Program-made: the position numbers and the translations under genes
Origin: Phycisphaerales bacterium
GTDB lineage: Bacteria; Planctomycetota; Phycisphaerae; Sedimentisphaerales; Anaerobacaceae
Direction of reading: 5' to 3'
Assembly (NCBI GenBank): GCA_039683175.1
Contig: JBDKRX010000019.1
Coordinates: 49,423 to 113,422 of the forward strand
Length of the DNA stretch: 64,000 nt
The notes under the pieces: model-generated
What the model saw: only the letters and a program-made list of their open reading frames with translations
Told to the model about the DNA's origin: nothing
Databases searched by the model: none
Shown here: positions 27,953 to 45,621 of the stretch, piece after piece
Position numbering within the stretch: position 1 is the first letter of the stretch
How the letters are laid out: each line of letters starts with the position of its first letter

Positions 27953-30007
27953 TTGATATACGGGGTTGCCGTGACTGCCAGGAAGATCCTGTCGATTGCG
28001 ATCTTATTGCTCTGGCCGACCATATCCCTATGGGCTGACGCAGAGGGCTTTGCGGACGCCAACCTGGACGAATCGCCTCCGGATGGGGATCTCTTTGACA
28101 TGTCCATCGAGGAGTTGATGGACGTTCGCGTGGACACGGTATACGGTGCGTCGAAACACGTCCAGACGCTCACGGAGGCGCCCGCGTCGGTCACGATTAT
28201 CACCGCCGAGGAGATCCGCAGGTATGGCTATCGGACTCTGGCAGAAATCCTGCGGAGCGCCCCCGGCTTCTACCTCAACTATGACCGAAACTACTACTAC
28301 ATGGGGACGCGGGGGTTCCGGCGGCCGGGGGACTATGACACGCGCATTCTCTTGTTGATCGACGGCCACCGGATCAACAACAACGTCGGCGATGCGCCGA
28401 CGTTTGGCACCGACTTCCTGTTGGATACGGACCTGATCGAGAAGGTGGAGATCATCCGCGGCCCTGGGTCGGCGCTCTACGGCAGCAACGCCGTGCTCGC
28501 CGTGATCAACGTCATTACCAAGCGAGGGAGAGACGTCAAGGGCCTGGAACTATCCGGACGGACCGGCAGTTTCGACACGCAGAAGGCCCGGATCACCTAC
28601 GGTGACCGCTTCGACAAGGGTATTGAACTGCTGCTATCGGCAAGCACGTACAACAGCGATGGTCCGGAACTGTACTTCCAGGAGTTCGACAGCCCCGAGA
28701 CATACAACGGGCATGTGGACAACGACGACGATCAGTTTGACAACCTCGTTGCCCATCTGTCCTGGGGCGACCTCTCGTTTTTGCTCGCCCACACCGGGCG
28801 CGAAAAGGGCATTCCGACGGCGCCCTGGGATGCCGTTTTCGGCGATCCCCGGACAAGGGTTTGGGACGATTCGACGGTGGCGGGTCTGACCTGGACCCGT
28901 GCCCTGTCTGAGCGATACTCCGTGCTTGCTCGCGCGTCATACGGTCACTCCAACTACGACGGACAATACGTCTACGACTACACGGAAGATGAGGACGACC
29001 CCTACATCGTCGTCAACAGGGACTACTGGAAGGGCCGCTGGTGGGAGGGGGAGTTGCAGGTCACCGGCAGCCCGGTCGACAGGCACACAATTACCGCGGG
29101 TACGGAGATCCGCTACAATGCCCGCCAGGATCAGGCCTGCTGGGACGAAGTGGTCTACCTGGACGACTCCAGGCACAGCCACAACTGGGGTGTGTACGTC
29201 CAGGACGAATTCAAGCTGCTGGAGAGATTGACGCTCGTCGGCGGGGTGCGCCACGACGGCTACAGCACATTCGGCGACGCCACGAATCCACGTCTGGCGC
29301 TGATCTACGATCTGTTCGAGGACACGACATTGAAGCTCCTCTACGGCAAGGCGTTCCGTGCGCCGAATGCCTATGAACTGTACTATCACGACGGGGGCTC
29401 CACGCAGAAAGCCGCCATCGATCTGGATCCCGAGAAGATTCAGACCTATGAGGTGGTTCTCGAGCGGCAGTTCAACCGCAATCTCCGCGCGACCGCCAGC
29501 GGTTTCCACTATGTCATGGAGGATCTCATCGACCAGTACACGGATCCGGACGATGGGCTGCTGGTGTTCAGGAACCTCGGCGAGGTCCAGACCCTCGGCG
29601 CCGAGCTGGCCCTGCACGGCCGATGGGATTGCGGCCTGCAATTGCGCGCGAGCTATTCCTACGCGGAGGCCGAGGATCAAGACAGCGGCGAGACCCTGGT
29701 GGATTCGCCCGAGCATCTGGTGAAGTGGAATCTGCTGGTGCCCGTCGTGCGTGACCGGCTCTTTGCCGGCTTGGAGGTCTTCTATGACAGCAAGGCGAAG
29801 ACCCTGGCCGGCGACTACGCCGACGACTTCACACTGACGAACCTGACGGTCACGTACCTGAACGCGTCAAAACGGCTCGAAATCGCTGCCAGCGTGTACA
29901 ACCTCTTCGACGTGGACTATGCATTCCCGGGCTTTGGGGAGCATACCCAGGATACGATCGAACAGGATGGACGGACATTCCGGGTCGGACTGACCTATCG
30001 CTTCTGA
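27953..30007 (+). CDS. TonB-dependent receptor-like outer-membrane beta-barrel, paralog 1
   Basis: Signal peptide and LFDMSIEELMDVRVDTVYGASK. Plug motifs (APASVTIITAEEI, DGHRINN, IEIIRGPGSALYGSNA). Terminal RVGLTYRF. The conserved GTG at 27971 is an alternative start. Confidence 0.8.
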   Translation: MIYGVAVTARKILSIAILLLWPTISLWADAEGFADANLDESPPDGDLFDMSIEELMDVRVDTVYGASKHVQTLTEAPASVTIITAEEIRRYGYRTLAEILRSAPGFYLNYDRNYYYMGTRGFRRPGDYDTRILLLIDGHRINNNVGDAPTFGTDFLLDTDLIEKVEIIRGPGSALYGSNAVLAVINVITKRGRDVKGLELSGRTGSFDTQKARITYGDRFDKGIELLLSASTYNSDGPELYFQEFDSPETYNGHVDNDDDQFDNLVAHLSWGDLSFLLAHTGREKGIPTAPWDAVFGDPRTRVWDDSTVAGLTWTRALSERYSVLARASYGHSNYDGQYVYDYTEDEDDPYIVVNRDYWKGRWWEGELQVTGSPVDRHTITAGTEIRYNARQDQACWDEVVYLDDSRHSHNWGVYVQDEFKLLERLTLVGGVRHDGYSTFGDATNPRLALIYDLFEDTTLKLLYGKAFRAPNAYELYYHDGGSTQKAAIDLDPEKIQTYEVVLERQFNRNLRATASGFHYVMEDLIDQYTDPDDGLLVFRNLGEVQTLGAELALHGRWDCGLQLRASYSYAEAEDQDSGETLVDSPEHLVKWNLLVPVVRDRLFAGLEVFYDSKAKTLAGDYADDFTLTNLTVTYLNASKRLEIAASVYNLFDVDYAFPGFGEHTQDTIEQDGRTFRVGLTYRF

Positions 30008-30035
30008 CCCCACACGACTTCTGATGGGCTCCGTT

Positions 30036-30159
30036 GATCTCGGACCTTGCATCCTGCAACATCCTGCAAGAAGGCTCGTAATCCGGTTCTTCGCTTTTGC
30101 CCCTCCATTCGGCCCGGAGACCGGACGATATGCGCTGCGGCCGCAGAGGGTCTTGCGGC
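30036..30159 (+). promoter_or_regulatory. conserved inter-paralog leader block 1
   Basis: GATCTCGGACCTT..GAAGGCTCGTAATCCGGTT..CTCCATT..GGAGACCGGACGATA..GGCCGCAGAGGGTCTTGCGGC aligns with 32267-32390. Confidence 0.5.
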
Positions 30160-30198
30160 GATGGGTCACTGCCTTTTCGAACGACACACGGAGTTGCT

Positions 30199-32238
30199 GT
30201 GGGTGCCCGGAAGATCCTGTGGATCGTGATTCTGTTGTTTGGGCTGAGCGCCTCGACGCGAGCCGGCGCGGACGGTCTTTCGTCCGTCGAACCGAACGGT
30301 GCATCGGAGGGCGACGATCTCTTCGAGATGTCTATCGAGGAACTGATGGACGTTCGCATCGACACCGTGTATGGCGCCTCGAAACACGCCCAACGGCTTG
30401 ACGACGCGCCCGCGTCGGTCACCGTCGTGACTGCCGAGGAAATCCACAAGTACGGCTATCGTACTCTGGCGGAGATCCTGCGAAGCGCCCCCGGTTTCTA
30501 CATCAACTATGACCGGATCTATCACTCCATAGGAACCCGCGGGTTCCGCAGGCCGGGCGATTTCGACACGCGAATTCTCGTGCTGATCGATGGCCACAGA
30601 GTCAACGAGAACATTGCAGTCGCTCCCCCCGTCGGCGTCGAATTCCCGCTGGACGTGGAACTGATCGAGAAGGTTGAGATCATCCGAGGTCCGGGCTCCT
30701 CGCTCTACGGCAGCAACGCACTGCTTGCGGTCGTCAACGTCATCACCAAACGAGGCGAAGAGATCAACGGCCTGGAAGCGGCCGGCCAGACAGGCAGCTT
30801 CGATGCATACAAAGGCCGGATCACCTACGGCAATCTCCTCGGGAAGGATGTCGATCTGCTGCTGTCTGCAAGCACGTATTCCAGCGACGGTCCAACCCTG
30901 TACTTCAAGGAGTTCGACACGCCTGAAACGAACAACGGCTCGGTGAAAAACGACGACGATCGGTGTGATCGTGCCGTTGCCAACGTATCCTGGGGTGATT
31001 TCTCGTTCATGCTGGTGCATGGCGAGCGGGAAAAGGGTGTCCCCACGGCGCCGTACCATACGGTGTTCGGCGATTCGCGAACGCGGGTCTACAGCGATGG
31101 AACGATGGCCGGCTTGACCTGGACCCGTGAGTTGTCCGAACGCTACACGGTGAAGGCGCGTCTTGCCTATGGCCGCTTCGACTATGATGGACGGTATGCC
31201 GTCGACCATGCGGAAGAACCCGAGGAGCCCGATCTCGCCATCAACGGCGATTCCTGGAGAGGCCGCTGGTGGGAGGGGGAGCTGGAGGTGATGGGCAGCC
31301 CGGTCGAAGGACACACCCTGACCGCCGGCACGGAGTTTCGCTACAACGCCCGACAGGACCAGACCAACTGGAGCGCCGATGTGGTCTATCTGGATGACTC
31401 CAGACACAGCCACAACTGGGGTGTCTACGTTCAGGATGAGATGAGACTGCTCGAGAAGTTGACCTTTGTCGGGGGTGTGCGCCATGACGAGTACCGGACA
31501 TTCGGCGGCTCCACGAACCCTCGCTTGGGGCTGATCTATGATTTCTTTGACCAGACCACGTTGAAGCTTCTCTATGGCCGGGCGTTCCGTGCGCCGTCTG
31601 CCTATGAGTTGTACTACCAGGACGGGGGGCAGAGCCAACAAGCACCCGACGACCTGGAGCCCGAGACGATCCAGACATACGAGGCGATCGTGGAACGGCA
31701 GCTCAACCGCAATCTCCTGGCGACCGCCGGCGGATTCTATTACGTCATGGAGGATCTGATTGACCAGTACCTGGATCCGGCTGACGGATTGCTGGTGTTC
31801 AGGAATCTCGGCGAGGTCCAGGCCGAGGGTATCGAGTTGGCGCTCCGCGGCCGGTGGGAGGGGGGCCTGCAATCCCGCGTGAGCTACTCGTACGTCGAGG
31901 CGAGGGACGAGACCGCCGACGAGGCCCTGGCGAACTCGCCGGAGCACTTGGTGAAGCTGGGTCTCATCAAGCCGGTGGTGCCGGAGCGGCTCTTCGCCGG
32001 GCTCGAGGTCCTCTATGACAGCAAGGCGAAGACCCTGGCCGGCGACTACGCGAACGACTTCACCCTGACGAATCTGACGCTCACGTATGTGAGCGCCTCG
32101 AAACGGCTGGAAATCGCCGCCAGCGTATACAACCTCTTCGACGTGGAGTATGCATTTCCGGGCTCCGGCGGAAACGCCCAGGATGCGATCGAACAGGACG
32201 GACGGACGTTCCGGGTCGGGCTGACCTATCGATTCTGA
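30199..32238 (+). CDS. TonB-dependent receptor-like outer-membrane beta-barrel, paralog 2
   Basis: Same architecture as paralog 1. GTG at 30199 (VGARKILWIVILLFG) is preceded by GGAG and aligns with the starts of the other paralogs. The ORF-track TTG at 30097 is probably too long. Confidence 0.8.
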   Translation: MGARKILWIVILLFGLSASTRAGADGLSSVEPNGASEGDDLFEMSIEELMDVRIDTVYGASKHAQRLDDAPASVTVVTAEEIHKYGYRTLAEILRSAPGFYINYDRIYHSIGTRGFRRPGDFDTRILVLIDGHRVNENIAVAPPVGVEFPLDVELIEKVEIIRGPGSSLYGSNALLAVVNVITKRGEEINGLEAAGQTGSFDAYKGRITYGNLLGKDVDLLLSASTYSSDGPTLYFKEFDTPETNNGSVKNDDDRCDRAVANVSWGDFSFMLVHGEREKGVPTAPYHTVFGDSRTRVYSDGTMAGLTWTRELSERYTVKARLAYGRFDYDGRYAVDHAEEPEEPDLAINGDSWRGRWWEGELEVMGSPVEGHTLTAGTEFRYNARQDQTNWSADVVYLDDSRHSHNWGVYVQDEMRLLEKLTFVGGVRHDEYRTFGGSTNPRLGLIYDFFDQTTLKLLYGRAFRAPSAYELYYQDGGQSQQAPDDLEPETIQTYEAIVERQLNRNLLATAGGFYYVMEDLIDQYLDPADGLLVFRNLGEVQAEGIELALRGRWEGGLQSRVSYSYVEARDETADEALANSPEHLVKLGLIKPVVPERLFAGLEVLYDSKAKTLAGDYANDFTLTNLTLTYVSASKRLEIAASVYNLFDVEYAFPGSGGNAQDAIEQDGRTFRVGLTYRF

Positions 32239-32266
32239 TCGCCTGCAACTTCCGACAAGCCCTGTC

Positions 32267-32390
32267 GATCTCGGACCTTCCATGACGCGACATCGCACTG
32301 GAAGGCCCGTAATCCCGTTCCGCGCCCCGGCTGCTCCATTGCAGGCGGAAACGGGACGATAGGAATTGGGGCCGCAGACGGTCTTGCGGC
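32267..32390 (+). promoter_or_regulatory. conserved inter-paralog leader block 2
   Basis: GATCTCGGACCTT..GAAGGCCCGTAATCCCGTT..CTCCATT..GGAAACGGGACGATA..GGCCGCAGACGGTCTTGCGGC. Confidence 0.5.
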
Positions 32391-32418
32391 CGGGTATGAC
32401 GGTCGTCTGCCGAACGGC

Positions 32419-34473
32419 ATGTATGGGGTGGTTGTGACTGCCGGAAAGACCTTGTGGATTCTGATCCTGTTCCTCGGGCTCAGTGCGTCTGCACGAGCCG
32501 GCGCGGACGGTCTTTCGTCGACGGAACCGAGCCAGGCGGTCCAGGACGAGAGCTTCTTCGACATGTCCATCGAGGAGCTGATGGACGTGCGCATCGATAC
32601 CGTGTATGGTGCCTCGAAACGTGCTCAGCGGCTTGACGAGGCGCCCGCGTCGGCCACCGTGGTGACCGCCGAGGAGATCCGGCGGTACGGCTATCGCACC
32701 CTGGCGGACATCCTCCAGAGCGCCCCAGGTTTCTACATGAACTACGACCGGATGGCCCACTACGTGGGAACCCGAGGGTTCCGCAGGCCGGGCGACTTCG
32801 ACACGCGAATCCTCGTGCTGATCGACGGTCACAAGATGAATGACAGCGTCTCGGGCGCCCCTCCCAGCGGCACGGAGTTCCCGCTTGACGTGGAGCTGAT
32901 CGACAAGGTCGAGATCATTCGCGGTCCGGGCTCCTCGCTCTACGGCAGCAACGCGGTGCTGGCCATCGTCAACGTGATCACCAAGCGGGGCAGCGCGGTC
33001 GACAGCCTGGAATTGAGCGGCCAGACCGGCAGTTTCGACTCGCGGAAAGGCCGGATCACCTACGGCAAGCTCCTCGGAAAGGACGTGGATCTGCTGTTGT
33101 CCGCGAGCACGTATTCCAGCGACGGTCCGACGTTGTACTACCCGGAGTTCGACGCGCCGGAAACGAACGACGGCTGGGTGGACAACGACGATAGTGAGAA
33201 CACCAACCTCGCCGCCGTAGTGTCCTGGGGCGACTTCTCGTTCGATCTGATCCATGCGGATCGCGACAAAGGCATTCCCGTGATCGTGGCCAGCACCGCC
33301 TTCGGCGATTCCCGGACGCGGGCCCTCAGCGAAGGGACGCTGGCCGGCCTGACGTGGACGCGCGACCTCTCCGAACGATACACGGCCATGGCGCGACTTG
33401 TCTACTGCCAGGGGGACACGGACATCCGCCATGCGCTGAACCTCGCTCCGGACGGGGCGGACCCCGTCGTGGTGCTCAATCGCAATTCCTGGATAAGCCG
33501 CTGGTGGGAGGCGGAATTCGGCGTGACCGGCAACCCGGTCGAGGGACACACCGTGACGGTCGGCACGGAGTTCCGCTACGACGCCCGACAGGACCAAAAG
33601 CAGTGGTTTGGAAACGATGTCTATCTGGATTCCTCCGAAGACAGCCGCAGTTGGGGCGTCTACCTTCAGGATGAGGTGAAACTGCTCGAGAAGCTGACCT
33701 TTATTGGGAGCGTCCGACATGATGAGTACGAGACCTGCGGCGGCGCCACGAGTCCGCGTCTGGGACTGATCTATGACGTGTGGGATCAGACGACCTTGAA
33801 GCTTCTCTATGGCGAAGCGTTTCGCGCGCCGTCGGCCTATGAGCTGTACTATGAAAACGCCGCAGGTGGCCAGAAGGCGGCCCACGAACTGGACCCCGGA
33901 CGGATTCAGACGTACGAAGCGATCGTCGAGCATCGGTTCAGCCAACATCTCCAGGCGACCGCCTGCGGATTCCACTACATCTTGAAGGATCTGGTCGACA
34001 CGGTTGTCGATCCGGCCGATGGATTGCTCGTGTTCCAGAATCGGGCCGAAGTGCAGGCCGAAGGCGTCGAGCTGGCGCTGCACGGTCGATGGGAGCAGGG
34101 TCTGCAATCCCGTGTCAGCTACTCGTACGTCGAGGCGCGGGACGAGACCGCCGACGAGACCCTGGTGAACTCGCCGAAGCACCTGGTGAAACTGAACCTG
34201 ATCAAGCCGGTTGTGCCGGAGCGGCTCTTCGCCGGGCTGGAGGTCCTCTACAACAGCAAGGTCAAGACCGTGGCCGGTGAGTACGCGGACGATTTCACGC
34301 TGACGAATCTGACGCTGACCTACACCAGTGTCTCGAAGCGGCTGGAGATCGCCGCCAGTGTATATAACCTCTTCGACGTGGACTATGCGTTCCCGAGTTT
34401 CACAGGGAGCGTTCAGGACACGATCGTGCAGGACGGACGAACGTTCCGGGTCGGGCTGACCTATCGATTCTAA
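32419..34473 (+). CDS. TonB-dependent receptor-like outer-membrane beta-barrel, paralog 3
   Basis: Same architecture. FFDMSIEELMDVRIDTVYGASK, plug motifs, terminal RVGLTYRF. Confidence 0.8.
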   Translation: MYGVVVTAGKTLWILILFLGLSASARAGADGLSSTEPSQAVQDESFFDMSIEELMDVRIDTVYGASKRAQRLDEAPASATVVTAEEIRRYGYRTLADILQSAPGFYMNYDRMAHYVGTRGFRRPGDFDTRILVLIDGHKMNDSVSGAPPSGTEFPLDVELIDKVEIIRGPGSSLYGSNAVLAIVNVITKRGSAVDSLELSGQTGSFDSRKGRITYGKLLGKDVDLLLSASTYSSDGPTLYYPEFDAPETNDGWVDNDDSENTNLAAVVSWGDFSFDLIHADRDKGIPVIVASTAFGDSRTRALSEGTLAGLTWTRDLSERYTAMARLVYCQGDTDIRHALNLAPDGADPVVVLNRNSWISRWWEAEFGVTGNPVEGHTVTVGTEFRYDARQDQKQWFGNDVYLDSSEDSRSWGVYLQDEVKLLEKLTFIGSVRHDEYETCGGATSPRLGLIYDVWDQTTLKLLYGEAFRAPSAYELYYENAAGGQKAAHELDPGRIQTYEAIVEHRFSQHLQATACGFHYILKDLVDTVVDPADGLLVFQNRAEVQAEGVELALHGRWEQGLQSRVSYSYVEARDETADETLVNSPKHLVKLNLIKPVVPERLFAGLEVLYNSKVKTVAGEYADDFTLTNLTLTYTSVSKRLEIAASVYNLFDVDYAFPSFTGSVQDTIVQDGRTFRVGLTYRF

Positions 34474-34708
34474 ACGTCCCCAACCTCCGATAAACTCCGC
34501 CCATTCGGGTCATGTTCCGTGTGATATCCCACGAAATGCCCTCGAATCGGGTTTCCCTTCTTTGCGACTCCATTCGCACCTGAATCTGGTCGATGTTCAC
34601 TCCGAAAGGCCGCTGGCGGTCCGTTCGGCGTGTGTCGGCGAACCACTCGATGCGAGCGGAAGAAGACGAACGATTGACGGTATGGATCGACCCCGTGGTC
34701 ATGACGTA

Positions 34709-35395
34709 ATGAACAACGTCGGCCCCAGACGTCTGCTTCTGGTCTTTGTGGCGACTCTGATGACTGTGTCGCACAGCGCCGTCGTGCGCGCGGAAGACGC
34801 CATAGACCGAGAATACCGGATCAAGGCCGCGTTCGTGTACAATTTCCTCAAGTTCGTCGAGGGCGGTCGATTCGCTCCGGCACCGGGCAGGAAGAAGGAT
34901 GAAGTGGACCCGAACGATCCCCTCGTGATCGGTGTCCTGGGTGTGCCTCCCTCCCGGATCGCCTTTGAGGAGTTTAACGGCAAACAGATCGGGAACCGGG
35001 CCATCGTCGTCCGCTGGTTCAAGGGTTTCGAGGAACTGGCCGACCAGGACAAGAAGATCCCGGAGCGGCACCCTGACCTCGACCGAATCAAGGCGTGCCA
35101 TGTGCTGTTTCTGTGCCCGTCCGAGAAAGCGTTTCTGCCGCGTGTCCTGCCGCACCTGCGGGAGAGCGGCATGCTGACCGTGGGGGACGTCCCTCTGTTC
35201 CTGGAGAACGGGGGTACGATCAACCTGCTGATCGAGGAGCGGAAGGTCCGATTCGAGATCAACCTGGCGGCGGCGGCCCGCGCCAAGCTGGAGATTCGAT
35301 CCAGCCTGCTTCGGCTGGCGGTAAGGACCATTGAGCACGATCAACTGGCGCAGCAGAAGGATGAGGAGGATCCGGGTGGAGCCGGACGTCCATAA
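34709..35395 (+). CDS. YfiR-like periplasmic protein (DUF4154)
   Basis: Signal peptide (LLLVFVATLMTVSHSAVVRA). YRIKAAFVYNFLKFVEG ... MLTVGD...GGTINLLIEERKVRFEINLAAAARAKLEIRSSLLRLA matches the DUF4154 pattern as I remember it. Confidence 0.75.
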   Translation: MNNVGPRRLLLVFVATLMTVSHSAVVRAEDAIDREYRIKAAFVYNFLKFVEGGRFAPAPGRKKDEVDPNDPLVIGVLGVPPSRIAFEEFNGKQIGNRAIVVRWFKGFEELADQDKKIPERHPDLDRIKACHVLFLCPSEKAFLPRVLPHLRESGMLTVGDVPLFLENGGTINLLIEERKVRFEINLAAAARAKLEIRSSLLRLAVRTIEHDQLAQQKDEEDPGGAGRP

Positions 35396-35408
35396 AATCA
35401 GACGCACG

Positions 35409-37538
35409 ATGTGGGTATACACGCATGACCTGTCGCTCAAGCACAAGCTGGTCGCGATTGTCATGCTCACGTGTATCGCCGCGCTGACGCTCACGGGTGG
35501 TGTCTTTGCCGCCTGGGAATGGACCATTCTCCGCCGTGGCGTGGTCCAGGACCTGACGACGCACGCGAACATCCTGGCGGACAACTGCAGAGCCGCGATC
35601 ACCTTCCGCGACGCCACCGACGCCGGCGAAATCCTCCAGACGGTCGAAGCGGTCCCCTCCATCGTCATTGCCTGCGTGTACACTGCCGATGGGGAGTTGC
35701 TCGCCGCCTACGTGCAGAAGGGAACCAAGGCCGCGATGCCCTCGGTGCAGGAACTGAAGGACCATCCCGTTTTTGCCCATGGGTTTCTCACGCTCACGCG
35801 GCCCGTATGTCTCGATGAGGAGCGGATCGGCACCGTCTGTGTGCGGCAGAGTCTCGGTTTCATGTACACGAGGCTCCATCGCGGCGCGATCGTGATTCTG
35901 GGCATTCTGTTTCTGTCGTCCGTGGCTGCGTACATGGTCTCCTCCAGGCTCCAGAGGATCATCTCGCATCCCATTCTCCACCTGGCCGATGTGGCGCGAC
36001 TGGTTTCGGAGAAACGCCGGTATTCCGTGCGAGCCGAGCGGCATGGCAGCGACGAGGTTGGCCTGTTGATCGACGCCTTCAATGAGATGCTCGAACAGAT
36101 CGAGCAGCGGGACGCCGCGCTCGTCGACGCCAACGAGCAGTTGGAGGCCCGGGTCCAGGAGCGGACCGCCGAGCTGACCACGGCGAACAGAAACCTGATC
36201 CGCGAGATCATGTTCCGCAAGCAGGCCGAGCAGGTCCTCATGCAGAGGACGGAATCCCTGGTCAATCACCAGAGAACGCTGTTGCGGCTCGCCAAGGAAA
36301 TCAAGGGCGACCTGCAAGCGACGATGAAGATGGCGACCGAAGAGGCCGCCAAGACCCTGGGGGTCGAGCAAGTCAGCATCTGGTTCTTTCACGAGCAGTC
36401 CTCTGAGCTGGTGTGCGAGCAGTCGTACAGTCTCAGCGGAAAAGACCGGGGCGCCGGCCTGCGGATGCGGGTGTCCGACTACCCGGTGTATTTCGACGCG
36501 ATCGAGAACAGCCGCATTCTGGCGGCCAACAACGCGCGGGAAGACCCTCGCACCCAGGCTTTCGCCGACACCTACTTCGCGCCGCTGGGGGTCGTGTCCG
36601 TGATCGACGTTCCGATCCGTCTCCACGCGAAACTGCTGGGCGTGATGTCCTATGAGCACACCGGGACGATGCGCGAGTGGTCCCTGGAGGAGCAGGACTT
36701 CGCCGCCTCGGTGGCGGACATGATCGCCTTGCAGGTGGAATCGAACGAGCGTCGCAAGCTGGAGCGCGCCCTGGCGAAGGCCAACGAGCATCTGGCCGAA
36801 ACCGTGCGGGACCTGCGCCGCTCGAACAAGGAACTGCAGGATTTCGCCTATGTCGCGGCCCACGATCTGAAGGCGCCGCTGCGCGGGATCGGTACGCTCA
36901 CCGACTGGATTGCCTCGGATTACGCCGACCGCTTCGATGAGCAGGGCCGTCAGCAGTTGTCCATGCTCAAGGGCCGTGTCTCGCGGCTCTCCGAGCTCAT
37001 CGACGGCATCCTGCACTACTCGGAAATCGGCCGGGTGGCCAACCGCCAGGAACAGGTGGATCTGAACCATCTTGTTCCGGAGGTGATCGCTCTACTGGAT
37101 CCGCCGGCGCATGTCGAGGTGGCGGTCCAGGGGCTGTTGCCGGTCGTCGTCTGCGAGAAGGTCCGCGTAGGGCAGGTCTTCCGGAACCTGATCGACAACG
37201 CGATCAAGTATATGGACAAGGCCCACGGACGAATCGAGATCGGTTGTTTGGAGCAGTTGGGATTCTGGAGGTTCTCCATCTCCGACAATGGCCCGGGGAT
37301 CGATGCCAAGTACTTCGAGAAGATCTTTCAGATGTTCCAGACGCTTGCTCCTCGGGACGAGCGGGAGAGCACCGGCATCGGCCTGGCGGTCGTCAAGAAG
37401 ATCGTCGATCTGTGCGGCGGAACCATCTGGGTCGAATCGAGCGTGGGCACAGGAAGCACGTTCTTCTTCACGCTCCCCAAACGGGTGGCGACGGCAGAGA
37501 AGGATGCATTCACTCCAGGCAGTGTGAGCCTGAATTGA
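35409..37538 (+). CDS. membrane sensor histidine kinase (CHASE8-like sensor, HAMP, coiled coil, GAF-like, HisKA, HATPase)
   Basis: Two TM segments flank a sensor region of the type that accompanies DUF4154 genes. H-box FAYVAAHDLKAPLRGI. NLIDNAIKYM, DNGPGI, GIGLAVVKKIV. No receiver domain. Confidence 0.8.
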   Translation: MWVYTHDLSLKHKLVAIVMLTCIAALTLTGGVFAAWEWTILRRGVVQDLTTHANILADNCRAAITFRDATDAGEILQTVEAVPSIVIACVYTADGELLAAYVQKGTKAAMPSVQELKDHPVFAHGFLTLTRPVCLDEERIGTVCVRQSLGFMYTRLHRGAIVILGILFLSSVAAYMVSSRLQRIISHPILHLADVARLVSEKRRYSVRAERHGSDEVGLLIDAFNEMLEQIEQRDAALVDANEQLEARVQERTAELTTANRNLIREIMFRKQAEQVLMQRTESLVNHQRTLLRLAKEIKGDLQATMKMATEEAAKTLGVEQVSIWFFHEQSSELVCEQSYSLSGKDRGAGLRMRVSDYPVYFDAIENSRILAANNAREDPRTQAFADTYFAPLGVVSVIDVPIRLHAKLLGVMSYEHTGTMREWSLEEQDFAASVADMIALQVESNERRKLERALAKANEHLAETVRDLRRSNKELQDFAYVAAHDLKAPLRGIGTLTDWIASDYADRFDEQGRQQLSMLKGRVSRLSELIDGILHYSEIGRVANRQEQVDLNHLVPEVIALLDPPAHVEVAVQGLLPVVVCEKVRVGQVFRNLIDNAIKYMDKAHGRIEIGCLEQLGFWRFSISDNGPGIDAKYFEKIFQMFQTLAPRDERESTGIGLAVVKKIVDLCGGTIWVESSVGTGSTFFFTLPKRVATAEKDAFTPGSVSLN

Positions 37539-37556
37539 TGGGAAAGGGTTAGGACG

Positions 37557-39410
37557 ATGTCCGGCAAGATCGGCTGCAGACAGATCTGTGGCGACGACCT
37601 ATACACGTCGGCCAGGGAATGCGAAAACCAGTCGCTCATGGAGGAGAATGAACGGCTCAGGCAGCAGGTGCAGGATCATGCAGAGGCGCACGCCCATGTG
37701 AAGGAACTGATCGCTCGCCTGGATGAAGCCGATGCGGTCCTCCGCACGGAGATCGAGCGGCGGCGCCGGCTGGAGGAACAACTCCAGCGGATGCTGAGCC
37801 GCGGAGGCGTCGGGGCCGACGACCGAACCGCCGAACTGGTCGCCACAAACGAGCGGCTGGTCAGGGAACTCACGGAACGCGCACGGGGCGAAGCCGCCCT
37901 GCGCGAGCGAGATCACCGTCTGCACGACGTGTTGAACAGCATTGTTACAGGCGTGCTGATTATCGACTGCGAAAGCCGGCAGATCGTGGACGTGAACCCC
38001 CACGCTGCCGCAGCGATTGGCTTGCCGAAGGAACAGATCGTCGGCAGGGTCTGTCACCAGTTTATCTGCCCCGCCCAGAAAGGGAGCTGCCCGATCACCG
38101 ACCTGGGCCAGACCGTGGACCGATCGGAACGCGTCTTGCTGGGCCATGGCGGCGCTCACATTCCGATTCTCAAGAGCGTGGTTCCCGTGACGTGGCAGGG
38201 GCGCGAGTACCTGATCGAGAGCTTCATCGACATCGCGCGGCTCACCCGGGTGGAAGACGAGGCCAGGGAGTCGCTCTCGCTGCTCGAAGCCGCGCTGGAA
38301 TCCATGGCCGACGGCCTGCTCGTTGTGGACGGCTTCGGCAAGATCAAGGAATACAACCGGCAATTCCAGGAACTGTGGGGATTGTCGGACTCCGTTCTCG
38401 ACACGCGGGACGACAATCTGGCCTTGGCCTCTGCGACGCCTCGGTTGCGGGACCCGGAGGCGTTCCTCCGCAGCGTCCACGGATTGTATGAACAGCGCGA
38501 GGAGGAGGGCCACGATCTCATCGAATTCCAGGATGGTCGCATCGTGGAATACTACTCGAAGCCCCAGCGGATCGGCGAGCAGGTCGTCGGTCGCGTATGG
38601 AGCTTCCGCGACATCACGGAGAAACACACGGCGGAGAGGAAGCAAACCGCGTTGCTGCAACGGGTGGCCCAGATCAACGAGGAGCTGACCCACTTCGCCT
38701 ACGTGGTCTCGCACGACTTGAAGGCCCCGCTTCGCGGCATCAAGCTCATTGCGGAATGGCTGTGCGCCGACTACGCGGACAAGCTGGGTGACGACGCCAA
38801 GGAGCAGCTTGATCTGCTCCAGAGCCGTGTCGCCCGGATGTACAACCTGATCGAGGGCATCCTGCAATACTCCCGCGTGGGACGGATCAAGGAAGAGACG
38901 GTGGACGTGGACCTCAACGCCTTGCTCCCGAGCATCATCGATGGCATCGCCCCACCCGAGCATATCCACGTCACGGTCGAGCCCGGTCTGCCTGCGGTCG
39001 AATGCGAAAGGACGCGCATCACCCAGGTGTTCCAGAACCTGTTGACCAACGCGGTGAAGTTCATGGACAAACCGGTCGGCGAGATCCGGGTCGGGTGCGT
39101 CGAGGACGGCGACCTCTGGCAGTTCCATATCGTGGACAACGGGCCGGGAATCGAAGAGAAGTACTTCGACCGCATCTTCAAGCTGTTCCAGACGCTCAGG
39201 CCGCGGGATGAGTTCGAGAGCACCGGCGTCGGCCTGGCGCTGGTCAAGAAGATCGTCGAGATGTACGGCGGGCGGATCTGGGTCGAATCGGAGGTCGGCC
39301 GTGGCAGCACGTTTTTCTTCACATTCCCGAGGAAGCACGGAGCGGATGCGTCGGGGTCTGCTGCCGGGGAGGCTGTCCGTTCCTGTGGCTGTGCGGCGCA
39401 GGGGGCGTAG
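37557..39410 (+). CDS. cytoplasmic PAS-domain sensor histidine kinase
   Basis: N-terminal coiled coil and two PAS-like regions. H-box FAYVVSHDLKAPLRGI. NLLTNAVKFM, DNGPGI, GVGLALVKKIV. No TM segment. The start may be the ATG at 37638. Confidence 0.8.
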   Translation: MSGKIGCRQICGDDLYTSARECENQSLMEENERLRQQVQDHAEAHAHVKELIARLDEADAVLRTEIERRRRLEEQLQRMLSRGGVGADDRTAELVATNERLVRELTERARGEAALRERDHRLHDVLNSIVTGVLIIDCESRQIVDVNPHAAAAIGLPKEQIVGRVCHQFICPAQKGSCPITDLGQTVDRSERVLLGHGGAHIPILKSVVPVTWQGREYLIESFIDIARLTRVEDEARESLSLLEAALESMADGLLVVDGFGKIKEYNRQFQELWGLSDSVLDTRDDNLALASATPRLRDPEAFLRSVHGLYEQREEEGHDLIEFQDGRIVEYYSKPQRIGEQVVGRVWSFRDITEKHTAERKQTALLQRVAQINEELTHFAYVVSHDLKAPLRGIKLIAEWLCADYADKLGDDAKEQLDLLQSRVARMYNLIEGILQYSRVGRIKEETVDVDLNALLPSIIDGIAPPEHIHVTVEPGLPAVECERTRITQVFQNLLTNAVKFMDKPVGEIRVGCVEDGDLWQFHIVDNGPGIEEKYFDRIFKLFQTLRPRDEFESTGVGLALVKKIVEMYGGRIWVESEVGRGSTFFFTFPRKHGADASGSAAGEAVRSCGCAAQGA

Positions 39411-39428
39411 GTCGAAAACCAACCTTCT

Positions 39429-41765
39429 GTGCATGGAGGGAATGGGGGTATTATGAGTCAGGACCAAAGACAACTGGGAATTGGGTTCCTCGAACCACAG
39501 GCCGGCCCGCCGCAATGGGAAACGGCGCTGGTGGAAGCGGTTCCCATGCCCGCTGCACTGGCGACCGCGGAGGGGCGCGTGTTGTGTGCCAACCGTCGCC
39601 TGTTCGATGCGGCGTACAGCGATCCCGCCGGCTTCGAATGCCATCGTCCTGCCGAAGACCGGGTGGGGGACTTGTTGGAGGGATGCGAGGGACTTCGTCC
39701 GTTGCTTGATGAGGCGGCCCGCACGGGCCATGCTGTCGGCGAGGTCCGGTTCGTCTCTTCGCGATCCGATGGGATCAGCCCGACGGTACAGGCGCACGCC
39801 GGAGTGTTGGCGGCCGGATCGGGGCAGGACACGATGATCCTGCTCACTTTCGACTGCTCCGGCTCGGCTGAGACGTTGCGGCAGGAACTCGCCATGTGCG
39901 AGAACAAGTATCGCGAGCTGGTTCAGGCGTCCGTCGACCTGGTCTTCGTCATGGATCTCGACGGCTGCTTGACTTTTGTGAACAAATCCTGGCAGCAGCA
40001 CGTCGGATATACGAATGACGAGATTGTCGGCACGAGCGGGCTGACTCTGGTGTCTCCCGAATGTCATCCGGCATGTCTTGCCTCGCTGCGACGGGCCGCA
40101 GCGGGCGAACCCGTCGAGAACCTCCAGTTCCGCGCCGCCACCAAAGACGGCAGGCACATGGACGTTCTTGCGAACCTCGCGCCGATACGCGACGCCCGCG
40201 GGCACGTCGTTCAGGTCATCGGCAGCGGTCGGGACATCACGGAGCTGAAACAGACCCAGGAACAACTGGCGAGTTCCCAGGAGCGTCTCCGTATCCTCTT
40301 CGAATACGCGCCGGACGCGTACTACCTGAGCGATCTGATGGGCACCTTCCTCGACGGCAACAGGGCCGCCGAGGAACTGTGCGGCTATCGCAGGGAGGAG
40401 CTCATCGGCAAAAACTTCCTGAAGCTGGACCTCCTGCCGAGGAGACAGTTGCCGCGGGCCGCAGGGTGTCTGGCCAAGAATGCCCTCGGGCATCCGGTGG
40501 GCCCCGTCGAGTTCCATCTGCGTCGCGGCGACCACACCCACGTTCACGTCGAAATCCGGACGTATCCCGTGCAGATCGAGGGGCAGAATGTGATCCTCGG
40601 GATCGCACGGGACATCTCGGATCGCAAGAAGGCGGAGGATGCGCTCAAAGAGAGCGAAGAGAAGTTCAAGGTGATCTTCGAGGAGGCGCACGAGGGCATC
40701 GCCTACCTCGACGACGTCGGGCGTGTGCTCGACGTGAACAAGAAGACGCTGGAGATTCTCCAACAAACGAAAGAGGAGACGGTCGGAAAGCACTTCATCG
40801 AGCTGGGCATCCTGGATCCGGGCGATGTCCCGCGGTTCATGACTCATTTCCAGCAGGTGCTCCTGGGCACGCTGGAACCGCTGAACCTTTCGATCAAGAA
40901 CAAGCAGGGCGAGACGCTCTTCCTGGAGTGCAGCGCTTCCGTGGTTCACAAGAAGGCGGGGGCTCGCGGCCTGGTGATTCTGCTTCGTGACGTCACCGAG
41001 CGCAAGCGGGCCGAGATACAACTGGAGGAACTCAATCGCAACCTGCAGGATACGGTCCGGGACCTGGAGCGGTCGAACCAGGAACTCCGGGATTTCGCCC
41101 ACGTGGCGGCGCACGACCTCAAAGCGCCGCTGCGCGGCATCGCCACGCTGGCTGAATGGATTTCCCAGGACTGCGCCGACAAGATCGACGACCGGGGACG
41201 GGAGAACCTGGCTCTTATGCGGCAGCGGGTGGATCGGATGATCCTGTTGATTGACGGGATTCTGCGCTATGCCGAGATCGGATACGGCGACTGCCTCGTC
41301 GAGAGCATTGACAGCGGCCAGGTGGTCGCGGAGGTCATCGAGCAGATTGCCCCTCCGTCGCATATCGAAATCCGGGTCGAGCGTCCCCTTCCGACGGTGT
41401 TCTGCGAGAGAATCACGCTGACCCAGGTATTCCAGAACCTGATCAGCAATGCCGTCAAGTACATGGACAAGCCGCAAGGCGAGATTCGGATCGCCGCGGC
41501 GGAGGAAGGCGACTTCTGGAGATTCACCGTGGCCGACAACGGCATAGGCATCGAATCGAGACACTTCGATCTGCTCTTCCAGATGTTCCAGACGCTCGGG
41601 TCCGTTCCTCATCCCGACAGCACCGGGATCGGTCTGGCCGTGGTGAAGAAGATCGTGCAGATGCATGGCGGGCAGGTCGGGGTCGAATCCAAGCCGGGTC
41701 ATGGAAGCACGTTCTTCTTCACGTTGCCCCAACACAACGAAAGGATGATGCATGAGAAACGATAA
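39429..41765 (+). CDS. cytoplasmic multi-PAS sensor histidine kinase
   Basis: Several PAS-like repeats separated by coiled linkers. H-box FAHVAAHDLKAPLRGI. NLISNAVKYM, DNGIGI, GIGLAVVKKIV. The start may be the ATG at 39453. Confidence 0.8.
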   Translation: MHGGNGGIMSQDQRQLGIGFLEPQAGPPQWETALVEAVPMPAALATAEGRVLCANRRLFDAAYSDPAGFECHRPAEDRVGDLLEGCEGLRPLLDEAARTGHAVGEVRFVSSRSDGISPTVQAHAGVLAAGSGQDTMILLTFDCSGSAETLRQELAMCENKYRELVQASVDLVFVMDLDGCLTFVNKSWQQHVGYTNDEIVGTSGLTLVSPECHPACLASLRRAAAGEPVENLQFRAATKDGRHMDVLANLAPIRDARGHVVQVIGSGRDITELKQTQEQLASSQERLRILFEYAPDAYYLSDLMGTFLDGNRAAEELCGYRREELIGKNFLKLDLLPRRQLPRAAGCLAKNALGHPVGPVEFHLRRGDHTHVHVEIRTYPVQIEGQNVILGIARDISDRKKAEDALKESEEKFKVIFEEAHEGIAYLDDVGRVLDVNKKTLEILQQTKEETVGKHFIELGILDPGDVPRFMTHFQQVLLGTLEPLNLSIKNKQGETLFLECSASVVHKKAGARGLVILLRDVTERKRAEIQLEELNRNLQDTVRDLERSNQELRDFAHVAAHDLKAPLRGIATLAEWISQDCADKIDDRGRENLALMRQRVDRMILLIDGILRYAEIGYGDCLVESIDSGQVVAEVIEQIAPPSHIEIRVERPLPTVFCERITLTQVFQNLISNAVKYMDKPQGEIRIAAAEEGDFWRFTVADNGIGIESRHFDLLFQMFQTLGSVPHPDSTGIGLAVVKKIVQMHGGQVGVESKPGHGSTFFFTLPQHNERMMHEKR

Positions 41766-42207
41766 GTCCGTGTTGCTCGTCGAAGATGACGCCATCGATG
41801 CGATGACGGTCCATCGCGCATTCCGAGACCTCAAGCTGAGCAACCCGCTGGCTCACGTGACGAATGGGGAAGAGGCCCTGGAATACCTGAGGAACGAGGA
41901 CAACCCGAAGCCTTGCGTCATTCTGTTGGATTTGAACATGCCGAGGATGAACGGCGTGGAATTCATGAAGATCACCAAGGCCGATTCCATCCTGCGGAAG
42001 ATCCCGGTCGTCGTGCTCACCACGTCGAGAGACGACCGCGATATTGTCGAGAGCTACAAGCTCGGCGTCGCCGGATACATCGTCAAGCCGGTGGACTACA
42101 GGAATTTCGTCGAGGCGATCAGGACGATCGACGTCTACTGGACCCTCAGCGAACTGCCGCGGGAATCCGTCGAGGTGGGGTGTACAGCGTGCCATTCGCA
42201 GGCGTGA
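41752..42207 (+). CDS. stand-alone response regulator receiver protein
   Basis: SVLLVEDD, ILLDLNMPRMNG, VVVLTTS, GYIVKP. No output domain. The ATG overlaps the end of the preceding kinase gene by 14 nt. Confidence 0.85.
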   Translation: MRNDKSVLLVEDDAIDAMTVHRAFRDLKLSNPLAHVTNGEEALEYLRNEDNPKPCVILLDLNMPRMNGVEFMKITKADSILRKIPVVVLTTSRDDRDIVESYKLGVAGYIVKPVDYRNFVEAIRTIDVYWTLSELPRESVEVGCTACHSQA

Positions 42208-42256: not shown

Positions 42257-43555
42257 CTACGGACCAATCGGCGGGACTCTCACGCGCCGGTTCTGGAGGC
42301 GGAACTGCCGCGGCGTCGTGCCCGCCACCGACTTGAACGTCCGCGTGAAGTAGCTCTGGTTGTTGTAGCCTGTCTGGAAGCAGATATCCGTACAGCTCTG
42401 GTCCGTGCCCAGCAGCAGTTCCTTGGCCCGCTCGATGCGCACTTCCGTCACGTAGTTGATCAGGGTGACTCCCATCTGTTCCTTGAACAAATGAGCGAGC
42501 CGGGACACACTCAGGTGCGATGCCCTCGCGATCTCGGTCAGCGTGATCGGCTTGTCGTAGTTGGCGTCGACGTAGTTGATCGCCGGACGGATCTGCGTCA
42601 TCTTTCTCGCGTCCTGGGAAGAGTAGACCAGCTCGATGAATTCGTTCAGCGCCGCGCTGATCCACGCGCACAGGTCCTCCTGGGTCTCGATCTGCATCAC
42701 CTTGTTGACGTAGGCGAGGTTCTTCTCGAGCATCGTATTGACGTCCACGCCGCCTTCGACCGCCGAGCGGCTCAGCACGATGAGCAGCTCGAGCAACCGC
42801 ACCTTGAGAATGCCGAGATCGCCGATGTCCTTGAACAGGATCGTGCCGAGAATCGAGTTGAGGATCTCCCGGGCCCCGATGCGATCGCCGATCTTGACTT
42901 TTTGCAGCAGAGCCCGTTCGCTCTCCAGCGGGTACTTCCATTGGGCGCCCAGCTTCTTTCGCTCCTGGATGAACTCGCCGAGCTCCGATTGCTGCCGGGA
43001 CCGTTGCCGGCGCCAGCGGATCAACTTGGCATCGAATCCGCTGACCTCGTAGAGCAGGTCGAAGAGGAATTCGGCGGCTGCGTGAATCTGCCGGCCTCGC
43101 ACCACGGGCAATTTGTGGACGGCCCGGGCGATCTCATGCCCCGCCATCGGGATTCCGTGCAATCGGTCCTCCACATCGTCGGCAAGAGTTTGCGTCGCCG
43201 GCTCCCAAAGGCATTTGCCGAAGAACATCCCCCCGTGCACGAGGTCCCGATCCACCACGGGCACACAGACCAGCACGATCCCCGCGTGGCAGATCGTGAT
43301 GAACGACTGCCCGGTCTCCACGGCGATCTCGATCGACCGTTTTCGTTCGGCACTGCATCGCTGCCGCCAGTCGGGATCTCCCTGCACGAGCCGGCAGAAC
43401 CGGGGCCGGCAATCCTCGCTGCACAGGCCGTCCACCGGCGTGCCATCCGGCCCGGTCGTTTCCAGCCCGAGTTTGAACCGTTTCCGGAACTCCCGCTCGA
43501 CCCGCTCGAACTTTTCCGGCGTCAAGATGTCCATCAACTTGGGCGGTTCCGCCAT
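42257..43555 (-). CDS. AraC-family transcriptional regulator with N-terminal PocR-like sensor domain
   Basis: PocR-like region (FCRLVQ...RCSAERKRSIEIAVETGQSFITICHAGIVLVCVPV). C-terminal HTH_AraC (ITLTEIARASHLSVSRLAHLFK...GYNNQSYFTRTFK). ATG at 43555 with a GGAG RBS. Confidence 0.8.
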   Translation of the reverse strand: MAEPPKLMDILTPEKFERVEREFRKRFKLGLETTGPDGTPVDGLCSEDCRPRFCRLVQGDPDWRQRCSAERKRSIEIAVETGQSFITICHAGIVLVCVPVVDRDLVHGGMFFGKCLWEPATQTLADDVEDRLHGIPMAGHEIARAVHKLPVVRGRQIHAAAEFLFDLLYEVSGFDAKLIRWRRQRSRQQSELGEFIQERKKLGAQWKYPLESERALLQKVKIGDRIGAREILNSILGTILFKDIGDLGILKVRLLELLIVLSRSAVEGGVDVNTMLEKNLAYVNKVMQIETQEDLCAWISAALNEFIELVYSSQDARKMTQIRPAINYVDANYDKPITLTEIARASHLSVSRLAHLFKEQMGVTLINYVTEVRIERAKELLLGTDQSCTDICFQTGYNNQSYFTRTFKSVAGTTPRQFRLQNRRVRVPPIGP

Positions 43556-43749
43556 CAAAACACTCCACAGTAGCAAGATCGTGCTATTATACCCACGATG
43601 CCGAAGATGCCAAGACGACTGTGTGCTTGGCACATGGCATCCTGGTCTAGGTCAAGGCTCAAGATTCTCAAAGATGGACTTCACCTGGGCACGGACGTAT
43701 CATGGCCAATCCGATGAGCTACGTGGACACGACGAAAGGAGCAACCCGG

Positions 43750-45621
43750 ATGATCCATTCTCTGCAAATCCACCGAATGGGACTGCTGGTGCTGTTGTTA
43801 TCGGGCCCGTGTCTCGCGGCCGGGCCTTTCTCCAACGAGGATCGTCGCCAGGCCTTCCTGCGGGCCCTGGAAAAGGAGGATGAAAGTTACGACTCGGCTG
43901 CGCGAATGCTCTGGGCCGAATTCTCCTCGCCGGGTTATCACACGACACTCCAGGGCGGCGTCGTTCACCGCACCCGTGAGAGCCTCAAGTACGCCGTAGC
44001 CCTGCTCGACAGCGGGGACACGGCCCGACTCCAGCGGGCCGCCGCGATCCTGAACCGCGTCATCGCCCTGCAGGATCAGGACCCGGGCAGTCGGACCTAT
44101 GGGATCTGGCCGTGGTTCCTCGAAGAACCGCTCGACAGGATGTCGCCGCCCGACTGGAACTGGGCCGACTTCTGCGGCGTGCAACTGCTCCAGGTTGCCA
44201 TCGACCACATGAACCGCCTGCCGCCGGAGCTGCAACAGAAGGTCAAGGATTCGATCCTGCACGCGGCCCGCTCCATCCAGCGGCGGGACGTCGGCCCGGC
44301 GTATACGAATATCGCCCTGATGGGCACCTACGTTACGCTCGTCGCCGGCGAGCGTTTCAGCCTGCGCGACCTGTCTGATTACGGCCGCCAGCGCCTCCGC
44401 CGATTCTACGAGTATACGCGGGAAAAGGGTTCATTCACCGAGTACAACAGTCCGACCTACACCTGCGTGGCCATCGAGGAAATCTCCCGTATGATCGAGC
44501 ATGTCCGAGACCATGAGTCGCAGACCGTGCTCACGGAGTTGAACCAATTCGCCTGGCAGCACGTGGCCCGGCGGTTCCACCCATCGACCAGGCAGTGGGC
44601 GGGCCCGCACAGCCGGTCCTACTCCACGCTTTTGCCCGAGGGGACGCTGGCTTTCATCGAGCGCGCCACGAGCAACAAGGTCGCGTTTATGCCTCCGACC
44701 ACGGCGTGGGAGAGTCTCGACGCCCAGCGCCTCAGCGTCCAATGCCCCAATGATCTCGAAACCTACTTCACGACCCTTGATATACCCCGCATAGAAACCG
44801 AGGCGTTCGTCGTCAGCGACGGTCAGGAACACGACCTCGTGGGCACGACGTATCTCCACCCGGAATTCACCCTGGGCAGCGTCAACATCAGCGATCTGTG
44901 GAACCAGCGCCGGCCGCTGGTCGCCTACTGGCGAACGCCCGCCGGAGCGGTCGCGGCGCGTGTTCGTTTCCTGCACAACGACTACGACTACGCCTGTGCG
45001 AGTCTGTTCACCGTTCAGGATGCAGCCGACGCCCTGGGCGCGGTCCTGTTCGCCACCGACCGCGGCGACACCCACATCTCGCTCGACAAGATCGCCAACG
45101 CCGCCATCCGGGCGAAAGACCTGCGTCTGCGTCTGGAGTTCGAGGGCGCCGTCGCCGGCGTGAAGCTGCCCGAGAAACTGGAGCTGGATGAGCCCCTCCG
45201 CTTCACATCGGGCTTGATCGAGGGTGTATTCACCGTTCATTCCGTCGATTTCGACGGGTTGCCCTCGCGGTTCGAATCCCAGCGGCAATCGGAGCGAGCC
45301 TGGATCGATCTGGTGCTCTATCACGGCGCGGAGCGCTCGTTCAACTTCAACGAGATCCGCGAGGCCGCCATTGTTTTTACCCTCTCCATCACCCCGTCCG
45401 CGACGGCTTTCGGGACGACAGAACCTTCGGTCTATTCGAGTGTCGCCAAGGAGCTGACGGTCGCGAACATCGATTCGCCGCGACGGACGTGGCACTTTCA
45501 GAGGACGAACAGTCAGATGCTGTCTCTCACGATCCCCATCCGGCCGTTGCCGACCGCCCAGCAGAAGGCCGCCTGCTCCGCCAAGGCCGGCGAGATCGAT
45601 CCGTGGAAATTCTCCATGTGA
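43750..45621 (+). CDS. secreted protein of unknown function (helical-repeat N-terminal half, beta-rich C-terminal half)
   Basis: AAGGAG RBS and signal peptide (MGLLVLLLSGPCLAAGP). High GC3. No motif I can assign to a named family. Confidence 0.6.
   Translation: MIHSLQIHRMGLLVLLLSGPCLAAGPFSNEDRRQAFLRALEKEDESYDSAARMLWAEFSSPGYHTTLQGGVVHRTRESLKYAVALLDSGDTARLQRAAAILNRVIALQDQDPGSRTYGIWPWFLEEPLDRMSPPDWNWADFCGVQLLQVAIDHMNRLPPELQQKVKDSILHAARSIQRRDVGPAYTNIALMGTYVTLVAGERFSLRDLSDYGRQRLRRFYEYTREKGSFTEYNSPTYTCVAIEEISRMIEHVRDHESQTVLTELNQFAWQHVARRFHPSTRQWAGPHSRSYSTLLPEGTLAFIERATSNKVAFMPPTTAWESLDAQRLSVQCPNDLETYFTTLDIPRIETEAFVVSDGQEHDLVGTTYLHPEFTLGSVNISDLWNQRRPLVAYWRTPAGAVAARVRFLHNDYDYACASLFTVQDAADALGAVLFATDRGDTHISLDKIANAAIRAKDLRLRLEFEGAVAGVKLPEKLELDEPLRFTSGLIEGVFTVHSVDFDGLPSRFESQRQSERAWIDLVLYHGAERSFNFNEIREAAIVFTLSITPSATAFGTTEPSVYSSVAKELTVANIDSPRRTWHFQRTNSQMLSLTIPIRPLPTAQQKAACSAKAGEIDPWKFSM

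Follow-up and report, generated by a model that had tools for sequence, protein, structure and literature searches.

How a signal received at the cell surface might reach kinases in the cytoplasm is the question raised by a block of eight genes in a metagenome-assembled genome of Phycisphaerales (Planctomycetota). The window analysed here, a stretch of 64,000 nt, contains between positions 27953 and 42207 eight plus-strand open reading frames (ORFs) which, according to the ORF list and Pfam, encode three TonB-dependent receptors (T1, T2 and T3), a YfiR-like protein (R), three kinases (K1, K2 and K3) and a receiver (RR). An initial annotation had read them as three receptor paralogues, a YfiR-like protein, a CHASE8 kinase, two soluble PAS kinases and a receiver, all on the same strand, and had suggested a path from the outer membrane through the YfiR-like protein to the membrane kinase. 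This inventory was confirmed by Pfam and by transmembrane prediction, and the domain assignments, DUF4154 and CHASE8 among them, were borne out by Pfam and NCBIfam scans. We report here that the receptor/YfiR-like/CHASE8 triad is real and conserved, and we lean towards the view that the block represents one lineage's own expanded version of a three-gene envelope sensor that is widespread, a YfiR/YfiN-like partner switch in which a receptor replaces YfiB.

Conservation of the triad was assessed by scanning one genome per GTDB species with the R alignment, which yielded 80 loci from Planctomycetota, Verrucomicrobiota, Acidobacteriota, Deltaproteobacteria and Latescibacterota; their ORFs were annotated by phmmer using the window proteins together with GGDEF and OmpA-C probes. 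A CHASE8 kinase came after DUF4154 in 71 of the 81 assessable cases. In 44 of 71, the receptor gene lay immediately upstream in the same orientation; three more were divergent. The full triad was present in 39 of 69. Relatives within Sedimentisphaerales/Phycisphaerae keep the order glyA-rseP-dxr, receptor, DUF4154, CHASE8 kinase, two to three more kinases and PocR-AraC, usually with a single receptor. Downstream genes vary and include hybrid CHASE8-kinase-receiver proteins as well as strings of receivers and further kinases. No CHASE8-GGDEF partner was detected in the GTDB survey loci. The cyclase form was found in the megaplasmids of Ralstonia solanacearum (135 records), where the genes for a T1-like receptor, a DUF4154 protein and a CHASE8-GGDEF protein (RSOE_03645-03655 in strain OE1-1) have 4-nt overlaps, in Pseudoalteromonas (receptor-YfiR-CHASE8-GGDEF) and in a Nitrospirae contig with overlapping genes, and Indioceanicola encodes the triad in its kinase form. 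When the search was reversed and started from the receptor side, all five T1-family receptors adjoined DUF4154, four of them also with a CHASE8 sensor. The combination of DUF4154, CHASE8 and receptor genes singled out in the initial annotation is conserved in many genomes, and its arrangement is far beyond chance, since it recurs across phyla. No YfiB-like gene was found, the OmpA C-terminal-domain query having matched nothing in 87 sequences (86 loci and the window), and when all other ORFs around DUF4154 were clustered without bias, no additional conserved partner, TonB/ExbBD for instance, emerged. A candidate natural fusion of DUF4154 and CHASE8 (P0134), which would have been Rosetta-stone evidence, was rejected as a chimeric or frameshifted gene call. 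At one locus (L103, 5310-8076), a T1-family receptor gene comes after the DUF4154 gene, and there is no CHASE8 sensor nearby; therefore, the receptor-DUF4154 pair can occur without an adjacent sensor.

Table 1. Features of the block, in window coordinates (TM, transmembrane helix)
Feature	Position	Strand	Description
T1, TonB-dependent receptor	27953..30007	+	Plug and barrel by Pfam; NCBI-length start would be GTG 27971
T2, paralogous TonB-dependent receptor	30097..32238	+	By Pfam; likely start GTG 30199; within tandem repeat
T3, paralogous TonB-dependent receptor	32419..34473	+	By Pfam; most divergent copy
R, secreted periplasmic DUF4154 protein, 228 aa	34709..35395	+	ORF opens 34562; Pfam DUF4154 'YfiR/HmsC-like' 6e-32
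K1, inner-membrane histidine kinase	35409..37538	+	TM-CHASE8-TM-HAMP-GAF-HisKA-HATPase; ORF opens 35331, alternative ATG 35361
K2, soluble kinase	37557..39410	+	Coiled coil, two PAS, HisKA, HATPase_c; no TM helix
K3, soluble kinase	39429..41765	+	At least three PAS, HisKA, HATPase_c; no TM helix
RR, stand-alone receiver, 151 aa	41752..42207	+	Pfam Response_reg only; ATG overlaps K3 end by 14 nt
Tandem triplication	27962..34499	.	~2230 nt per unit, 67-80% nucleotide identity; repeat search and spacer alignment
T1 acidic motif, D46-LFDMSIEELMD-V58	28088..28126	+	Directly ahead of VDTVYGA strand
T2 acidic motif	30319-30354	+	Sequence coordinates
T3 acidic motif	32554-32589	+	Sequence coordinates

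R is predicted to carry a signal peptide if translation starts at ATG 34709. All 15 best PDB matches retrieved with Foldseek for its AlphaFold model (predicted local distance difference test, pLDDT, 79) were YfiR, with template modelling scores of 0.70-0.79 and ~18% identity, and its sequence profile reaches YfiR only at E~2e-3. Because the fold and the DUF4154 domain match and yet the cutoff of the NCBIfam YfiR equivalog NF053586 is missed (22.7 bits versus 85), R is a distant YfiR-fold protein, that is, a member of the superfamily and not an orthologue. The cysteine pattern of YfiR is not kept. The most conserved stretches of R are its N-terminal helix and its C-terminal strand and helices, and the surface with which YfiR binds both YfiB and YfiN corresponds to these conserved regions (PMC4655355). 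The YfiR-like (DUF4154) family is large, with 13,399 clusters at 50% identity matching R at E<=1e-3. Orphan members exist: in L005/L006 (10001-10666), a DUF4154 gene whose product is 42% identical to R lies amid glycoside hydrolase and transporter genes, with neither receptor nor kinase nearby.

K1 matches the Pfam families CHASE8 (9e-19), HAMP, GAF, HisKA and HATPase_c, and its two predicted transmembrane helices enclose a periplasmic part of ~120 residues (residues ~63-181). Its N-terminal 260 residues pass NF053592, the model named 'sensor histidine kinase, YfiR-like protein-associated' (219.4 bits versus a cutoff of 194), and the YfiN/DgcN model aligns to residues 35-296 at 4e-29. No GGDEF domain was found by Pfam, the protein ending in HisKA and HATPase_c. 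A sequence search found no solved structure of CHASE8. Homologue searches that started from the sensor region of K1 retrieved fragments for the most part and were of little use for architecture counts.

In T1-T3, Pfam recognized the Plug domain (E~1e-20) and the TonB_dep_Rec barrel (E 2e-41 to 2e-51). The AlphaFold2 model of T1 (pLDDT 83.5) comprises a plug and a 22-strand barrel whose closest structures are BtuB, PfeA, PqqU and Cir, and a TonB-box-like strand, VDTVYGA (28130-28150), lines up with the TonB boxes of Cir and BtuB. Ahead of this box, T1 has an extension of ~31 residues that is predicted to be disordered with one short helix. Within it lies an acidic peptide, (D)LFDMSIEELMDV, which is common to T1, T2 and T3 and nearly unchanged among them; the linker preceding the peptide varies between the paralogues. 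Such a peptide, DLFDMSIEELMDV, was found just ahead of the TonB box in 40 of the 41 full-length receptors adjoining DUF4154, which span several receptor subfamilies (T1 scores of ~60 to 1200 bits). Counting was done with a relaxed pattern of the peptide, which matched four of 2050 shuffled N-termini and not one of the nine receptors without a DUF4154 neighbour that served as controls, a small set drawn from diverse proteobacterial plasmids. The first position of the NCBIfam NF053590 (TOL_0244) model falls exactly on the T1 motif. In FecA-type transducers, the matching position is occupied by a signalling domain. The acidic peptide may be linked to R, and the path from the outer membrane through the YfiR-like protein to the kinase, already a reasonable reading, is strengthened by the contrast between adjacent receptors and controls.

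On the established domain content, folds, conserved gene order and motif association we build a mechanism in which all binding and phosphotransfer steps are ones that we infer. YfiR is known to bind YfiN, and by analogy R would most likely bind the CHASE8 domain of K1, fixing its signalling state. The receptors would set the amount of free R. Ligand binding in TonB-dependent receptors frees the N-terminal segment into the periplasm; by the favoured route, it would here expose the DLFDMSIEELMDV peptide, which would capture R. The receptor peptide would then take the role that YfiB has in YfiBNR, from the place where the signalling domain of FecA-type receptors sits. By an alternative route, which is also the main rival, the receptor would import whatever R and K1 detect. 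Cytoplasmic cues would be added by the soluble PAS kinases K2 and K3, which have a bacteriophytochrome-type core like that of K1. All three kinases probably phosphorylate the Rcp1-type receiver RR, and RR would in turn contact other proteins or serve as a node in a phosphorelay. The end output of the pathway is encoded outside the block, elsewhere in the genome.

A comparison with known systems sets this arrangement apart. With YfiBNR (TpbB/DgcN-YfiR-YfiB of P. aeruginosa and E. coli) and HmsCDE of Yersinia, the block shares a periplasmic DUF4154/YfiR-fold gene beside a transmembrane-CHASE8-transmembrane-HAMP sensor. Further likenesses are an outer-membrane protein as third partner and a conserved surface of R that matches the one with which YfiR binds its partners. 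However, the output is a histidine kinase, whereas that of YfiN is a GGDEF cyclase; the partner is a TonB-dependent receptor, whereas YfiB is an OmpA/Pal-like lipoprotein; the gene order is receptor-R-sensor; and R is distant from YfiR. Cell-surface signalling systems (FecA-FecR-FecI and FpvA-FpvR) resemble the block in having an N-terminal addition before the TonB box of the receptor and a genetic tie to an inner-membrane signalling protein. In contrast to them, the receptors of the block have only a 13-residue peptide and no STN, and the proposed relay to a kinase or cyclase would be a soluble protein of the periplasm instead of an anti-sigma/extracytoplasmic function (ECF) sigma pair, neither member of which was found among the eight block genes or the flanking genes. 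As far as domain content tells, the block therefore lacks the defining features both of YfiBNR (GGDEF, YfiB) and of cell-surface signalling (STN, sigma/anti-sigma). In LuxP-LuxQ, TorT-TorS and ChvE-VirA, a soluble periplasmic protein likewise modulates a membrane kinase via its periplasmic domain, but the folds and the sensor domain are different and none of these systems includes a gene for a dedicated receptor in the outer membrane. We regard the block as YfiR/YfiN-type signalling in a new variant, whose mechanism we infer.

The main rival holds that the receptors are ordinary transporters and that R binds the imported solute and presents it to K1, in the manner of LuxP-LuxQ, TorT-TorS and ChvE-VirA, with no contact between receptor and R. 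We consider this rather unlikely. It accords with the complete plug, barrel and TonB-box-like strand of the receptors, with their closeness to the transporters BtuB, Cir and PqqU and with the receptor-less loci, which still keep R and the sensor. The YfiR fold, moreover, is similar to the N-terminal lobe of periplasmic binding proteins of type I (PMC4655355), a likeness also seen in structure matches 16-24 of the R model. Surface loops in the receptor family are more conserved across phyla than strands (0.72 versus 0.67), as expected of one defined ligand. What import followed by sensing leaves unexplained is the N-terminal peptide common to several DUF4154-adjacent subfamilies and absent from the nine controls, as well as the replacement of YfiB at exactly this position.

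The same loops bear on the earlier proposal that a triplicated receptor serves several ligands. Residues identical in all of T1-T3 amount to 68% in the plug, 62% in the strands and 52% in the surface loops, a difference that hints at several ligands; the alignment of T1-T3, however, contains no loop indels, and the conserved loops of the family suggest one conserved ligand rather than diversification. Identity by region gave no clear concentration of paralogue divergence in the surface loops, and this candidate was set aside. Loops that are more conserved than strands are unusual for TonB-dependent receptors; in the T1-family alignment, this holds for the predicted loops L2, L3, L7 and L11 (T1 residues 236-259, 287-301, 470-493 and 653-672).

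The copies themselves are part of a tandem repeat in which each unit of ~2230 nt consists of a receptor gene and the spacer downstream of it. T1 and T2 are 70% identical, T2 and T3 72%, and T1 and T3 64%. Single-copy orthologues in relatives share 72-79% identity with T1 and less with T2 or T3, and because the single-copy receptor of relatives is always closest to T1, T2 and T3 are the added copies. A T3-like second receptor copy is present in L011. A larger expansion than that of the window occurs in another Sedimentisphaerales locus (L028, 1100-13261), with four receptor and two DUF4154 genes followed by one hybrid CHASE8 kinase-receiver.

Downstream of K1, the kinases and the receiver belong to matching types. 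The nearest PDB structures to the kinase core of K2 are bacteriophytochrome kinases and HK853. K2-like kinases are conserved in orthologous loci, and K3-like kinases were found in L001, L011 and L038. RR contains Response_reg alone, its residues D12, D13, D60, T90 and K112 are intact, and its nearest PDB chains are the single-domain phytochrome response regulators 5ic5, 5brj, 1k66, 1k68 and 1i3c (RcpA, RcpB, Rcp1). RR is of the Rcp1/RcpA phytochrome-partner type, and its orthologues in L009 and L011 are 77-80% identical. A phytochrome-type core thus stands with an Rcp-type receiver, which is compatibility at the level of class. Cph1-Rcp1 and bacteriophytochrome pairs share with the block the core class of K1-K3 (H-box HDLxxPLxxI) and the single-domain receiver class; they differ in their phytochrome photosensory module, which the block lacks, its inputs being CHASE8 and PAS. 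As the initial annotation had stated, none of K1, K2 and K3 has a receiver or an output domain (Pfam). In a complete Phycisphaerales genome (L100, 11057-12088), a gene for a PF03601 (Cons_hypoth698) membrane protein separates the CHASE8 kinase gene of the orthologous block from the kinase gene that follows it.

Several observations weigh against the preferred reading of a receptor-controlled switch that feeds one receiver. The STN signalling domain (~80 aa) was not found in T1-T3 by Pfam, and no TonB/ExbBD genes were found within the 64-kb window. T1-T3 score 137-166 bits on NF053590, for which the cutoff is 645, and R scores 101.9 bits on NF053591, below the cutoff of 125. About one-third of the DUF4154-CHASE8 loci are without an adjacent receptor, so the receptor is an accessory input and not an obligate part; loci that lack it are spread across the R tree and therefore point to repeated loss or gain. 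Because the gap between T3 and R is ~235 nt, co-transcription of the receptor genes with R is not assured, and promoter and terminator scans, at background level, were uninformative on operon structure. The size and the purely proteobacterial plasmid origin of the nine-receptor control set belong here as well. On the cytoplasmic side, the initial annotation had noted a near-identical H-box in the three kinases and had proposed that the cytoplasmic PAS kinases converge on one receiver. HDLKAPLRGI is indeed present in all three kinases; however, the exact string occurs in 50 of the 159 kinase ORFs of the surveyed loci, a distribution that marks it as a trait of the kinase class and not of a shared partner, and because it is class-wide it gives no evidence of convergence. 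RR is absent from the orthologous loci L001, L003 and L007, which keep extra kinases, and this weakens the suggestion that the adjacent receiver is the common target.

Gene spacing is relevant to a second rival, in which the receptor genes are only the regulon of neighbouring kinases that sense something else, and no signal passes from receptor to kinase. With the likely true starts, gaps measure ~190 nt between T1 and T2, 180-195 nt between T2 and T3 and ~235 nt between T3 and R (start 34709). They then shrink to 13 nt or an overlap between R and K1 and to 18 nt both between K1 and K2 and between K2 and K3, and end in the K3-RR overlap (-14 nt) that had been pointed out at the start. The description of the block as one with short gaps or overlaps therefore holds for the tightly packed stretch from R to RR and not for the receptor genes, which are set apart by spacers of ~180-235 nt. 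Such spacers upstream of receptor genes could hold promoters, and receptor genes often adjoin their regulators. Nevertheless, we judge this explanation improbable: the block has no DNA-binding regulator among its eight genes (Pfam), the triads of Ralstonia and Nitrospirae overlap in one operon with a cyclase output and not a transcription factor, and the conserved receptor motif would stay unexplained. The spacers were also considered as a separate element, which was rejected since spacer alignment puts them inside the tandem duplication. Rfam gave no match on the whole window, and hence there is no riboswitch ahead of the receptor genes.

That unrelated transport and signalling genes are held together by nothing more than the shared ancestry of close relatives is scarcely credible: plain synteny does exist in the clade, the flanks glyA-rseP-dxr and PocR-AraC being syntenic in relatives too, but the cross-phylum survey already contradicts this explanation. 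Distant phyla have the triad amid unrelated flanking genes, with its order kept, its genes overlapping and its outputs varied.

The block is flanked upstream by minus-strand dxr/rseP/glyA and downstream by a minus-strand PocR-AraC regulator. This PocR-sensor AraC-type regulator (42257-43633) converges on the block end, and its position is kept in the Phycisphaerae loci L001 and L003; plain synteny and a functional link could not be separated. Beyond it, a plus-strand ORF of 639 aa (43702-45621) has coding-like composition and no Pfam match, and a domain-less gene of similar size lies in the same place in L003 (17502-19328). The rest of the window is housekeeping (leuA, leuCD, leuB, ppdK, miaA, pdxA, fumarase and a sulfatase). 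Between genes for large and small aconitase-family subunits (leuC/leuD-like, 47722-49080 and 49489-50058) sits a plus-strand ORF of 135 aa (49081-49485) that matches the '23S rRNA-intervening sequence protein' family (PF05635, 7e-12).

The triad has not gone wholly unnoticed. NCBIfam release 20 contains models for a TOL_0244 family receptor (NF053590), a TOL_0243 family YfiR-like periplasmic protein (NF053591) and the associated kinase (NF053592). Since these three models are linked, curators have seen the neighbourhood; the models carry names, and we found no described function for them. A literature search found no publications on a DUF4154/CHASE8/TonB-dependent receptor signalling system. 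The block shares with these models the three-gene idea and a K1 sensor that passes NF053592. However, R and T1-T3 fall below the equivalog cutoffs, and for this reason the block is a sister lineage of the NCBIfam triad and not a member of it. More tentatively, the receptors may constitute a new class of TonB-dependent transducer in which an acidic peptide of ~13 residues replaces STN, captures a YfiR-like protein and thereby releases a CHASE8 sensor, as a portable kinase/cyclase module present in at least six phyla and also in the plant pathogen Ralstonia solanacearum; we hold this to be possible rather than probable.

Surface signals received by TonB-dependent receptors reach the cytoplasm through ECF sigma/anti-sigma pairs, and YfiR, with the lipoprotein YfiB as the outer-membrane partner, regulates YfiN; both schemes are well known. 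The module described here may be a new route from the cell surface to the cytoplasm. If the proposed mechanism is true, it joins both schemes, with a nutrient-type receptor feeding a YfiR-like switch that controls kinases or cyclic di-GMP synthesis. The triad is widespread and portable between kinase and cyclase outputs, and because it occurs in the genetically tractable Ralstonia, the idea is directly testable. It could account for the orphan genes for DUF4154 and CHASE8 proteins that many genomes contain, and it could identify a ligand-to-biofilm or ligand-to-kinase pathway.

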